From IMG/VR virus record IMGVR_UViG_2531839104_000013: a DNA stretch of 4,986 nucleotides; one strand, given 5' to 3'. Under the pieces are notes generated by a model. The model saw only the letters and a program-made list of their open reading frames with translations. It was not told the origin of the DNA and searched no databases. The position numbers and the translations under genes are program-made. This stretch comes from a virus. Lineage: Duplodnaviria; Heunggongvirae; Uroviricota; Caudoviricetes. Below, piece by piece: positions 1,784 through 4,955 of this stretch; the first letter of the stretch is position 1; every line of letters starts with the position of its first letter.

Positions 1784-3310
1784 TCAAAAATAAACCTCAC
1801 CATCAACCATATATTTGAGAGCACTTATCGCCTGCTGGGCGGATATTACTTTCATTAAAGGATAGTGTTTAAAAACAATGCCATTCATAAAATAGATATC
1901 ACAGGTTTTATTATCCGTATTAATTATGATTTTTTCGAATATTTTATAGGCAAGTGTACGGCATAACTCTCGTCCATTTTTACTGGTTAAGTCAATAGCA
2001 TAAAAATCACTGAATGAATTTACACCTTTACTCTTCAAAGTTTTCAATGATACCAAAGCTCTTCGTAATTCCTTATCTAATAGTCTTATTTTCTCTGCTA
2101 TAGCGGTAACTTCAGGCGCGACAGACAATGCAACGATTAAATTATTAATTTTCATCTGAAGCTCAATAATTTTTAACTCTAAAGTTTCATTAGCATCTTT
2201 CTTGTTTTCAACTGGTTGAATTTTGCTACAATTAAAAAGCAATTCATTAATGATATTATAATCAACCAAATCTCTCTTTATTGATGGCCTGTCACATCGA
2301 TGTAATCTTCTCATCGGACAAACATAATAGCCATGCAAACTTCCAGATACCGCATGAACAATCATGGTATTACCACAAGCCTCACACTTCATAACTGTTC
2401 GAAGTAGATTTATTAGCATAGGATTCTTGCTACTATTGCTAATACCAAAAGGTGCCAACCGAATTTCCTGTACAGCGTAAAACAAATCATCTGATATGAC
2501 TCTGGGATAATAGCCAGCGATTTCACTTATCCCTTTCCCTCTTGCACGATATGAAGGTACGCATATACCTATCAGAGCTTTATTCGCTAATAATTTTTCA
2601 ATTACAGAAGGCCCCCATGCACTTTCTTTTCCTGAGAAATTCTTTACAGCATGATCATTTAAATACTTGGCTATTGCATTCAATGAGCGCCTTTCCATCC
2701 TGAGTTTAAAAATTAGCTCAATAGTTTTCACCCTGTCGGGGTCTGGAACAAAAGCCGTTCTTTTGTCATCTAAGGAGAGCCATCTCGGACAAGACGCCGT
2801 CATAATCGTACCTGATTCCAGTGCATCCTGCCGTTTTTTCTTCCATGATAATTTAACCCGACTTGACTTTATCTCGCTTTCTTCATTTGCCCTTTGTGCT
2901 ATAAGTATGGCTTTTATTAATGAATATGGCTCATTCAAAGAGTCAATATTATAGACTGTATTGTCGCAAAGAGTTATAACATCAATACCGTGATTCAAAA
3001 TCAATTTCAGACGTTCAATCGCTTCACCGACTTTTTCTCTTGAAAGTCTGTCCAGACTTTCAACTAACAATGTAGTTCCTGGCAATATATAACCATGCTC
3101 TATAGCATCTAAAAATTCCGAAAAAGCTCCTGATTGTGCATGCTTTCCTTTGAATGCACTTAATCCTAAATCTTCATATGTTATGGTATCAAGATAATAA
3201 TCACTATTTACCTTTAACCATTCAGCAATAAGTCTTCTCTGTCGGTTTAATGAGTCGCCAGACATCTGACCTGGTGATGAAAATCGCATATATGCTATGG
3301 CTTTTTTCAT
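1784..3310 (-). CDS. ybcK: Large serine recombinase (YbcK-like), 508 aa
   Basis: N-terminal resolvase catalytic motif YMRFSSPGQ (putative nucleophile Ser), TTLLVESLDRLSR motif, Cys-rich zinc-ribbon region (CEACGN...YYVCPMRRLHRC) and a coiled-coil-like region (ELKIIELQMKINNLIVALS...). AGGTG lies 5 nt upstream of the ATG at 3310. The gene is conspicuously AT-rich. Confidence 0.9.
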   Translation of the reverse strand: MKKAIAYMRFSSPGQMSGDSLNRQRRLIAEWLKVNSDYYLDTITYEDLGLSAFKGKHAQSGAFSEFLDAIEHGYILPGTTLLVESLDRLSREKVGEAIERLKLILNHGIDVITLCDNTVYNIDSLNEPYSLIKAILIAQRANEESEIKSSRVKLSWKKKRQDALESGTIMTASCPRWLSLDDKRTAFVPDPDRVKTIELIFKLRMERRSLNAIAKYLNDHAVKNFSGKESAWGPSVIEKLLANKALIGICVPSYRARGKGISEIAGYYPRVISDDLFYAVQEIRLAPFGISNSSKNPMLINLLRTVMKCEACGNTMIVHAVSGSLHGYYVCPMRRLHRCDRPSIKRDLVDYNIINELLFNCSKIQPVENKKDANETLELKIIELQMKINNLIVALSVAPEVTAIAEKIRLLDKELRRALVSLKTLKSKGVNSFSDFYAIDLTSKNGRELCRTLAYKIFEKIIINTDNKTCDIYFMNGIVFKHYPLMKVISAQQAISALKYMVDGEVYF

Positions 3311-3554
3311 GGTGACACCTGCTAACTTATGCTTTTATAAACCTTAGTGGTGAGATATAATTTTTGTTTAATTTTTATTTAAAAAGACAATTACGATCAC
3401 ACTATCTTGAATATACAACAATAATCGTATTGCAATTTGCTTACGCAATAATCTTGAAGGCACAAAAGAATACACAAAAACTAAAAACATTAACAAAAGC
3501 GGCCCATGTAAAGATATGAACCGCCATATTGCAGTCTTTTAAAAGAAATTATTT
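3311..3554 (-). promoter_or_regulatory. AT-rich intergenic region upstream of ybcK containing phased A-tracts and ATTGCAAT/GCAATA motifs; probable ybcK promoter region
   Basis: A-tracts at about 3464, 3476, 3483 and 3494 at roughly helical spacing; palindrome ATTGCAAT at 3429-3436. No confident -35/-10 pair could be assigned by eye. Confidence 0.3.
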
Positions 3555-3887
3555 TTAATGTGGTGTGCTTCGTGACAATAAATTAATAACCAACACACCG
3601 GCACAAATCAACATCATGCCTATAACGGCTGGCAGGTCCAGCCGTTGGCCGAAAAACCCCCATGATAGTAAGCTAATCAGGACAATACCGACTCCTGACC
3701 AGATAGCATAAGCAATCCCTGTAGGAATATAAGCCAGCGTCTGAGCTAATAACCAGAATGATGCACAATAACAAATAATTGTACCAACAGATGGCCATAA
3801 CCGTGTAAAACCTTCTGAAAACTTCATTAAGGTTGTACCAATGACCTCTGCAAGTATTGCACCACCAAGATAAATATAAGGGTTCAT
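3555..3887 (-). CDS. emrE: Small multidrug resistance (SMR) efflux transporter EmrE, 110 aa
   Basis: Translation MNPYIYLGGAILAEVIGTTLMKFSEGFTRLWPSVGTIICYCASFWLLAQTLAYIPTGIAYAIWSGVGIVLISLLSWGFFGQRLDLPAVIGMMLICAGVLVINLLSRSTPH is near-identical to EmrE as I recall it. I chose the ATG at 3887 over the track ORF's upstream ATG at 3941. Confidence 0.93.
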   Translation of the reverse strand: MNPYIYLGGAILAEVIGTTLMKFSEGFTRLWPSVGTIICYCASFWLLAQTLAYIPTGIAYAIWSGVGIVLISLLSWGFFGQRLDLPAVIGMMLICAGVLVINLLSRSTPH

Positions 3888-3902
3888 AACATATTCTTTC
3901 CT

Positions 3903-3937
3903 GTTCAAACTGGAGAGAATTGTACTACAGTTTGAAC
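3903..3937. promoter_or_regulatory. 10-bp perfect inverted repeat GTTCAAACTG-N15-CAGTTTGAAC enclosing a -10-like TACAAT (minus strand), about 16 bp upstream of the emrE start
   Basis: Arms at 3903-3912 and 3928-3937 are exact reverse complements; the minus-strand TACAAT corresponds to 3924..3919. Candidate operator, promoter or terminator between ren and emrE. Confidence 0.35.
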
Positions 3938-3954
3938 TCAACTCACCTGTTTCA

Positions 3955-4257
3955 TCATTGTGTACCCATTGATGTTCTTTTATATACCCTCAATACCCGT
4001 TTCATCGCGGCACTCTGGCGACACTCCTTAAAAATCAGATTCGTGCTCACCTTTCCTTCCCGTTCTTCTCTGGTAGCGAACCGGTAATACACCGTTCGCC
4101 AGACCTTACCTTCGACGACCAGGATTCCTGCCCGCGCCATTTTAGCCGCAGCCTGATTTATGCTGGTTACGGTTGCACCTGTTACCGCGGCAACGTCCTG
4201 TGCACAGAAGCTCTTATGCGTCCCCAGGTAATGAATAATTGCCTCTTTGCCCGTCAT
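3955..4257 (-). CDS. ren: Ren-like protein (lambda ren homolog), 100 aa
   Basis: Translation MTGKEAIIHYLGTHKSFCAQDVAAVTGATVTSINQAAAKMARAGILVVEGKVWRTVYYRFATREEREGKVSTNLIFKECRQSAAMKRVL... matches lambda Ren as I recall it. Its ATG overlaps the P stop (ATGA). Confidence 0.88.
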   Translation of the reverse strand: MTGKEAIIHYLGTHKSFCAQDVAAVTGATVTSINQAAAKMARAGILVVEGKVWRTVYYRFATREEREGKVSTNLIFKECRQSAAMKRVLRVYKRTSMGTQ

Positions 4258-4955
4258 ACACTTGCTCCTTTCAGTCCGAACTTAGCTTTAATTTCTGCGA
4301 TCTTCGCCAGAGCCTGTGCACGATTTAGAGGTCTACCGCCCATAACAGGAAGTTGTTTTACTGGTTCAGGTATCGTCTCACCACGGTTAATTCGCGCTGT
4401 CATACAGGTCAGTTCATCGGCAGCCTTGCGCCGTAATTCCGCGTCAGTCAGCGCATTGGCCCGCATGTTCTGGTACAAGTTGGTAACCAACCAGTAATGC
4501 GCGTTCGATTTCCACGGATAAGACTCTGCATCCGGATACAGGCCTCGCTTCCGGCAATACTCGTAAACCATATCAACCAGCTCGCTGACGTTTGGCAGTC
4601 CGGCGATAACGGATGCTTCTTCCCGGCACCATGCAACAAACTGCCCGGGTGATGGCAGAAATGGTCGATTCTGCCGACGGGCTACGCGCATTCCTGCGTT
4701 AACCTGTTCCATTGAGGTGATCCCGTTTTCCCGGAAAGCCAGAACCCACTGGCGGCGGATTTCGTTCACTTCGTTCTGGTCACGGTTAGCCAGGCTCGCC
4801 GGGAAAGTTGCCAGTAACTGGCTGAACACACCGTTGATGATCTGCGCTACCTGCTGTACCTGCGGCTTTTCGTCGTACTGTTCCGGCATGTTGTTGGCGA
4901 TCCGACGCATCTGCTCACGGTCAAAGTTAACCATCTGTGCGGCGATGTTTTTCAT
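4254..4955 (-). CDS. P: Lambda-type replication protein P (DnaB helicase loader), 233 aa, intact
   Basis: Translation MKNIAAQMVNFDREQMRRIANNMPEQYDEKPQVQQVAQIINGVFSQLLATFPASLANRDQNEVNEIRRQWVLAFRENGIT... is near-identical to lambda P as I recall it, full length. Confidence 0.95.
   Translation of the reverse strand: MKNIAAQMVNFDREQMRRIANNMPEQYDEKPQVQQVAQIINGVFSQLLATFPASLANRDQNEVNEIRRQWVLAFRENGITSMEQVNAGMRVARRQNRPFLPSPGQFVAWCREEASVIAGLPNVSELVDMVYEYCRKRGLYPDAESYPWKSNAHYWLVTNLYQNMRANALTDAELRRKAADELTCMTARINRGETIPEPVKQLPVMGGRPLNRAQALAKIAEIKAKFGLKGASV

Follow-up and report, generated by a model that had tools for sequence, protein, structure and literature searches.

Morons of lambdoid prophages consist of an extra gene with its own promoter and are expressed from the repressed prophage, as is the case for bor and lom of lambda and for the morons of HK97. 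Operators that overlap the transcription start of an efflux gene are represented by QacR IR1 at qacA of Staphylococcus aureus and by the operators of TetR-type and MarR-type regulators. In phage lambda, the intrinsic terminator tR2 is located downstream of P and ren. Hybrid promoters made by IS1 insertion were reportedly described by Prentki et al. in 1986.

EmrE serves as the model for small multidrug transporters and is a genuine determinant of resistance to paraquat and to quaternary cations, yet the native transcriptional control of emrE has scarcely been described. We analyzed a perfect inverted repeat that lies directly upstream of emrE in a stretch of 4,986 nucleotides, the whole of which is called the window below. 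The data indicated that the repeat coincides with the core of the emrE sigma-70 promoter, an ordinary and weak promoter of a phage-borne accessory gene, and that its symmetry is probably incidental, with no function of its own, a reading to which we give a probability of roughly 0.55.

The window was identified as part of a DLP12-type lambdoid prophage of E. coli, and E. coli chromosomes carry DNA that is nearly identical to it (99.8% identity). The minus strand is the coding strand of every gene in the window. The features of the window are as follows.

4254-4955, minus strand: P, replication gene
3955-4257, minus strand: ren coding sequence, with its stop codon at 3955-3957 and its final codons overlapping the upstream edge of the emrE module
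3547-3964, minus strand: emrE module (promoter and gene), about 91% identical to the fliE-linked copy
3555-3887, minus strand: emrE coding sequence, ATG at 3887-3885, 110 amino acids, multidrug efflux transporter of the SMR family
3498-3525, minus strand: terminator-like hairpin with a T-run, 3' of emrE, called by the terminator scan
1784-3310, minus strand: ybcK, 3' of emrE, large serine recombinase (recombinase family) of 508 amino acids
also in the window, minus strand: ybcN, ninE, a DUF1364 gene and the start of rusA

The hairpin at 3498-3525 falls outside the segment that is common to the window and the fliE-linked emrE copy. The order ren-emrE-ybcK is present in active temperate phages as well; in active lambdoid phages ybcK is likewise found 3' of emrE (locus L323, 3693-5219), and the emrE promoter allele with the perfect dyad is the ybcK-linked one. 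In K-12, ybcK is followed by ybcL-ybcM, which are absent from the window. The AraC-type gene ybcM is linked to emrE in some contexts and is absent both from the window and from the cryptic clades of Escherichia.

Geometry and expected frequency of the dyad

First, the inverted repeat was examined in the sequence. The preliminary description had reported a perfect 10-bp inverted repeat with a 15-nt spacer at 3903-3937, and this was what the sequence contained: GTTCAAACTG-N15-CAGTTTGAAC, with 10-nt arms that are fully complementary. When one mismatch was allowed, the dyad grew to 13-nt arms with a 9-nt gap. On the minus strand, which is the strand of emrE, the order is GTTCAAACTG TAGTACAATTCTCTC CAGTTTGAAC AGGAAAGAATATGTT ATG, and the whole dyad is contained in the 67-bp gap between the ren stop codon and the emrE ATG. 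The distance from the centre of one arm to the centre of the other is 25 bp, or about 2.4 helical turns. Of the ten pairs in the stem, four are G-C pairs, and the loop has 15 nt, or 9 nt with two additional inner pairs.

Shuffling was used to find how many such dyads chance would produce, a dyad being counted in this class when its perfect arms had 10 bp or more and its spacer did not exceed 30 bp. The window was shuffled 400 times with dinucleotides preserved, and the expectation came to 0.11 dyads per window, which agreed with the earlier rough estimate of 0.1 to 0.2 per 5 kb. The 67-bp gap was shuffled 20,000 times by mononucleotides, and the probability of finding a dyad of this class there was P = 0.0015. 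The window holds four dyads of this class in total, the others lying at 1373-1396, 1402-1430 and 3040-3063, and one of the four is inside a coding sequence. Shuffling thus underestimates how many dyads real phage DNA contains, so that rarity by itself is no proof of function.

The other three repeats were also inspected. Two of them are adjacent perfect 10-bp inverted repeats in the non-coding DNA that separates ybcK from ybcN: the repeat at 1373-1396 is CGCATTTAAG-N4-CTTAAATGCG, and the repeat at 1402-1430 is GTCACCGGAG-N9-CTCCGGTGAC, which has a terminator-like score on the plus strand, antisense to the genes. The repeat at 3040-3063, within the ybcK coding sequence, consists of two perfectly palindromic 11-bp arms around a centre of 2 nt, TTGAAAGTCTG CA CAGACTTTCAA.

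The emrE promoter and the transcripts that cross the dyad

The sequence of K-12 is identical to the window across the dyad, from -76 to -4 relative to the emrE ATG, and start maps published for K-12 are therefore applicable to the window; the start-site data themselves originate from K-12 and not from the strain of the window. Positions were transferred by way of emrE (567538-567870 in K-12) and the identical sequence. In the entries for this region of the K-12 Cappable-seq table (PMC4782308), a primary 5' end is given at position 567514 of U00096.2 on the plus strand, with a relative read score of 12.9 against a threshold of 1.5 (about 20 reads) and a log2 enrichment of 3.77. This position corresponds to A3911, where C(-1)A(+1) are the first two bases of the downstream arm, and the guess of a start near 3912 made in the preliminary description was thus only one base away from it. 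Among the entries of the same table for about 40 nt around (567470-567549), no further start is given on either strand. A 5' end at 567508 is listed with 2 reads by Kim et al. (2012; PMC3415461, Table S1), and the 51-nt sequence listed for it ends ...TAGTACAATTC. This minor end, C3917 in the window, is too near to TACAAT for that hexamer to launch it. The start-site set of Mendoza-Vargas (2009) has no emrE entry, and the genomic SELEX table has no RpoD peak upstream of emrE. A start site for emrE is thus already in public data sets. The elements of the promoter region, numbered from the Cappable-seq start where negative and positive positions are given, are listed below.

3941-3946, minus strand: GTGAGT, the best -35-like hexamer, 3 of 6 matches to TTGACA, with a 16-bp spacer to TACAAT
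3928-3937, minus strand: upstream arm GTTCAAACTG, -26 to -17, in the spacer between -35 and -10
3919-3924, minus strand: TACAAT, -10 hexamer, -13 to -8, 5 of 6 matches to TATAAT, with A2 and T6 present
3917, minus strand: C3917, minor 5' end, 30 nt 5' of the ATG (2 reads)
3911, minus strand: A3911, main emrE start in the Cappable-seq entries, preceded by C3912, with a 24-nt 5' UTR
3903-3912, minus strand: downstream arm CAGTTTGAAC, -1 to +9, holding the start and the first transcribed bases
3896-3902, minus strand: AGGAAAG, Shine-Dalgarno-like, one base past the downstream arm and outside the stem

The hexamer TACAAT is separated from the Cappable-seq start by 7 nt, which is the usual distance for a -10 element, and the mapped start thus supports the earlier assignment of TACAAT, in the spacer of the dyad, as the emrE -10. 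A sigma-70 -35 hexamer is expected to be near TTGACA and 16-18 bp upstream, and no such hexamer was found at this promoter. The consensus promoter scan made no call there because no -35 reaches 4 of 6 matches. The poor -35 fits a weak promoter or an activator-dependent one.

Given the identical sequence, the K-12 data show TACAAT to be the -10 element and A3911 to be the start of a transcript with a 24-nt leader. With a start at A3911, the upstream arm is promoter spacer (-26 to -17) that is not transcribed from this start, and the downstream arm covers -1 to +9. The poor -35 (GTGAGT, 3 of 6) may make the promoter intrinsically weak. A weak promoter would lead to low native expression, and selection for more EmrE would then recruit IS1 or amplification.

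Evolution of K-12 under paraquat bears on this point. In one study, a preprint, emrE was among the earliest loci hit: it was amplified about 42-fold in two lineages, and in a third lineage a 9-bp duplication of the IS1 type was found 39 bp upstream of emrE. The insertion at -39 corresponds to about 3926 in the window, which is between the arms and borders TACAAT on its upstream side. In the second study, IS1 was found upstream of emrE in three of three high-paraquat lineages, and emrE mRNA was significantly increased. The K-12 568,276 region, which corresponds to about 3925-3933 in the window, has repeatedly gained IS1 just 5' of the emrE -10 under paraquat. The tip of the left end of IS1 reads ...AAGTTGGCAGCATCACC, and TTGGCA lies 8 bp from the tip. 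In the modelled junction, a duplication ending at -39 to -37 places the IS1 TTGGCA 18-16 bp upstream of TACAAT. Insertion of IS1 would accordingly be predicted to supply the missing -35 and so create a strong hybrid promoter, and no repressor would be needed. Because the IS1 insertions also split the dyad, de-repression fits equally well.

De-repression presupposes that the dyad is an operator, with both arms bound by a dimer or tetramer encoded elsewhere by the host or the phage, an explanation that we regard as possible but doubtful. A protein covering -26 to +9 would block RNA polymerase, and emrE would remain low until its release. The dyad spans the -10 and the start, which is the right place for a repressor, and it is rare by chance in the gap; moreover, emrE expression is raised by IS1 insertions between the arms, and native expression is low enough for a 42-fold amplification to be selected. 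However, the hybrid IS1 promoter accounts for the insertions without a repressor, and an arm spacing of 25 bp (about 2.4 turns) is unusual for a simple dimer. A gene for a regulator is absent from the window and from the module that travels with emrE, the window contains no extra half-site, and no report of factor binding was found in the literature. A more specific version holds that the dyad is a true operator for a host or prophage repressor that keeps the prophage-borne efflux pump silent, that the perfect symmetry is an adaptation of the phage allele, and that the paraquat IS1 insertions split the operator and do not supply a -35; we consider this version unlikely.

In a search for literature on the emrE promoter, its operators and factors binding there, only two preprints on paraquat evolution and tables of genomic SELEX were found. 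In the SELEX table renD-emrE is treated as one unit, and H-NS is flagged in the neighbourhood. Sites of known regulators were compared with the dyad by eye, using remembered consensuses. The LexA consensus, CTG-N10-CAG, differs in spacing from the N15 found here, and none of the CRP, FNR, marbox and PurR/LacI-type adjacent half-sites fits.

Next, the ability of the dyad to form a structure in RNA was analyzed. The 35-nt RNA of the prophage allele, folded in isolation, had an energy of -11.9 kcal/mol (z = -5.2); the energy was -8.2 kcal/mol for the fliE allele and -2.3 and -2.1 kcal/mol for sister species. In an 85-nt context the fold was no better than that of shuffles (z = -0.48). With its start at A3911, within the downstream arm, emrE mRNA does not include the upstream arm and is unable to fold into the hairpin; the stem is for this reason possible only in RNA that reads through from P and ren. 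An Rfam scan of the entire window on both strands (E <= 1) gave no match, and a riboswitch or another known RNA element was ruled out on the basis of this empty scan.

A hairpin formed solely in P/ren read-through transcripts after prophage induction is, in our judgement, an improbable role for the dyad. Placed between the ren stop codon and the emrE ribosome-binding site, such a hairpin could serve in stabilisation or processing of the message, or could insulate the translation of emrE. Its favourable points are the energy and z-score of the isolated 35-nt RNA, an end one base before the ribosome-binding site that leaves this site free, and the fact that the perfect form belongs to the prophage context, where read-through exists. 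However, the own transcript of emrE begins inside the dyad, the structure is not conserved in relatives, the 85-nt context does not fold better than shuffles, no Rfam match was obtained, and the covariation seen was not decisive.

The preliminary description had also suggested that a stem-loop here could stop read-through from P and ren, and this suggestion did not survive. As an intrinsic terminator for P/ren transcription the dyad would be the counterpart of lambda tR2, and it is indeed able to form a stem directly after ren, at the position where lambda has tR2. Neither strand, however, has a T-run after the stem, the tail being AGGAAAGAAT on the minus and TCAACTCACC on the plus strand; only 4 of the 10 pairs are G-C, and the loop has 9-15 nt against the 3-8 nt expected. 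The terminator scan made no call at the dyad, though it called a terminator 3' of emrE. Termination at the dyad is therefore scarcely credible.

The emrE module and the symmetry of its promoter in other copies

The emrE module consists of emrE and 78 to about 105 bp of upstream DNA, and it ends 8 bp past the stop codon. Between E. albertii and the prophage allele, similarity reaches to about -105 (about 3991 in the window). The other copies of the module that were compared are those at 4001-4419 of locus L001 and at about 2920-3333 of loci L004-L007. The module was found in at least four contexts, and no regulator gene accompanies it in any of them.

Prophages and phages: 3' of ren
Most E. coli: beside fliE, followed by ybcL-ybcM
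Cryptic-clade Escherichia: neither of these neighbours
E. albertii: with ybcL-ybcM

Similarity to prophages without emrE stops at about 3982-3991, and copies that share only emrE reach 3964. Because these limits are offset from one another (3982-3991 against 3964 and about -105), the 3' end of ren looks chimeric in this type of prophage.

The mobility of the module raises the question of a recombination site, which would make the dyad a target of YbcK or a scar or edge of a mobile emrE cassette. In prophages and phages the perfect dyad is found together with ybcK, and the boundaries of the module are sharp and recurring. The dyad, however, lies at least 27 bp inside the edge of the module and away from any junction, and an imperfect version is present where ybcK is absent. 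A partner copy is absent as well: a search of the window for a second copy of a dyad arm (at most 1 mismatch per 10-mer, 2 in 14, 3 in 16 or 5 in 20) found none, which argues against a pair of recombination sites and also against multiple operators. We regard a recombination site as highly improbable, and even when it is taken together with the terminator, the two explanations remain very improbable. Integron attC sites were considered separately, since SMR genes are often cassettes. An attC site was rejected: by inspection the arms match the RYYYAAC/GTTRRRY cores at only 5 of 7 positions, and the 35-bp element is upstream of the gene and inside the module, not at the 3' end of the module.

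The dyad is within the module in every context, and its fate can therefore be compared across the copies. The arms and the number of Watson-Crick pairs in each allele were as follows.

Prophage allele: GTTCAAACTG / CAGTTTGAAC, 10 pairs
fliE-linked E. coli allele: GTTCAAACTG / CAGTATGAAC, 9 pairs
E. whittamii, E. ruysiae and Escherichia sp. E1V33 (cryptic clades): GTTCAAACTG / CGGTATTAAC, 7 pairs
E. albertii: GACCAATTTG / CGGAATTATC, 5 pairs
C. murliniae: practically no dyad, 3 pairs by hand count

The preliminary description had named conservation of the dyad upstream of emrE in other genomes as a check, and such conservation was not seen, since the number of pairs drops from 10 to 9, 7 and 5 across these alleles and species. 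The upstream arm is the same in the two E. coli alleles and in the three cryptic-clade Escherichia; in E. albertii it differs at 4 of 10 positions. The elements of the promoter were retained. Every Escherichia copy had TAGTACAAT or TAGTAGAAT at a fixed distance from the ATG, as did Citrobacter murliniae, in which EmrE is 85% identical and the -10 reads TAGAAT. The Shine-Dalgarno-like AGGAAAG was invariant across all Escherichia copies, with a ribosome-binding site kept in C. murliniae too, and GTGA(G/A)TT was kept at the -35 region across Escherichia. Judged from these alignments, conservation tracks the promoter and not the symmetry.

The distribution of the alleles was then determined. An identical 55-nt promoter was present in 1,275 of 5,426 complete E. 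coli genomes, and a further 2,399 of the 5,426 carried a version with 95-99% identity, mostly with 2 mismatches and fliE-like; the fliE-linked version is thus the commoner emrE promoter allele of E. coli. Among 239 viral and metagenome copies, 148 had the perfect dyad, 70 had CAGTATGAAC, 16 had TTTCAAACTG and 1 had GTTCAATCTG. In these 239 copies no compensating change in the other arm was found among the CAGTATGAAC, TTTCAAACTG and GTTCAATCTG variants. For the operator, these data mean that full symmetry is missing from the commonest E. coli allele and from every sister species, although the promoter is retained, and that uncompensated arm variants are circulating. On the other side, two double-sided changes were found, both in E. 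albertii (8 distinct variants compared), a level that was reached in 17 of 500 shuffles. The changes in the right arm of E. albertii, relative to the cryptic clades, both restore pairing with altered bases of the left arm. These paired changes, which favour the operator, hint at some constraint on complementarity (p about 0.015, a rough and uncorrected value). A search for further orthologues for the covariation analysis (protein search, then contigs) gave only fliE-type E. coli copies, and in homologues with about 75% identity or less the DNA upstream of the gene was unrelated.

Promoters of some other emrE genes were also inspected. In CP147417.1, from E. coli, the emrE promoter is a spacer variant, CTGTGGTACAATTCTCTGCAG (locus L326, about 1440-1500), and a run of N stands just upstream in the record. 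An Enterobacter emrE homologue whose protein is 75% identical (locus L009, about 2948-2980) has an unrelated perfect 11-bp repeat, TAACTTATTAT-N11-ATAATAAGTTA, about 20-52 nt upstream of the ATG, which is a position similar to that of the E. coli dyad; a dedicated adjacent regulator was not seen at this locus. An emrE-like clade from Citrobacter, Kluyvera, Erwinia and Pantoea (loci L010-L017) has GTTCAAAC... in common about 40-75 nt upstream of the start, a word that recurs in the E. coli upstream arm. The motif of this clade can be read as TTCAAA-N19-(TGA)TACGAT or TATAAT, with a 19-bp spacer. Spacers of 19 bp are unusual and are typical of promoters under MerR-type regulators.

The perfect symmetry is best explained as a recent state of the prophage allele that would have arisen from a 7/10 quasi-palindrome through three single-sided substitutions. 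In a start region under weak constraint, drift or templated quasi-palindrome correction could suffice for these three substitutions. Templated quasi-palindrome correction is a known mutational mechanism, and it could yield the same symmetry without selection. That all three substitutions are toward pairing was considered as a sign of selection and was dropped: the perfect dyad had been picked as the endpoint, which forces the direction of the substitutions and makes this direction unusable as evidence. The points against an incidental symmetry are that the dyad is rare in the gap (P = 0.0015) and that it is centred where repressor operators usually sit.

Significance and comparison with known systems

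Promoter and gene together may form a compact, self-sufficient 'moron' cassette. Such a cassette would allow emrE to be expressed from a repressed prophage and to be moved between genomic contexts. A weak, self-contained promoter without a good -35, carried along with the gene by temperate phages and islands, would explain why resistance arises by the IS1 or amplification route. Protein binding at the arms, if it occurs, would mean a regulator for emrE and a switch linked to the phage; the comparative evidence makes this the less likely outcome.

When the locus was compared with the morons of lambdoid prophages, emrE resembled them in being a single accessory gene between ren and the nin region, with a mapped start of its own and, 3' of the gene, a terminator-like hairpin, on active temperate phages. 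The start used for this likeness was mapped in K-12. Unlike the morons, the emrE promoter and gene are also found outside prophages, beside fliE and in other Escherichia species.

The likeness to QacR IR1 and to the TetR-type and MarR-type operators is a long dyad that spans both the -10 and the transcription start of a gene for multidrug efflux. In contrast to those operators, there is no adjacent TetR-type or MarR-type regulator gene at emrE, 15 non-symmetric bases separate the emrE arms, and orthologues without the symmetry exist.

The dyad occupies the same map position as lambda tR2, just after ren, but it has no T-run, its loop is long, its stem is A+T-rich and the terminator scan did not call it. 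The guanidine-II (mini-ykkC) riboswitches share with this locus a hairpin-capable element 5' of an SMR-family gene. The emrE element differs from them in having one hairpin and not two, in having no ACGR loop and no Rfam hit at E <= 1, and in that the emrE promoter leaves most of the element untranscribed.

The paraquat mutants resemble the hybrid promoters made by IS1: IS1 is inserted just 5' of an existing -10, TTGGCA would come to lie 16-18 bp away, and emrE mRNA is increased. In contrast to the window, that case concerns evolved K-12 mutants.
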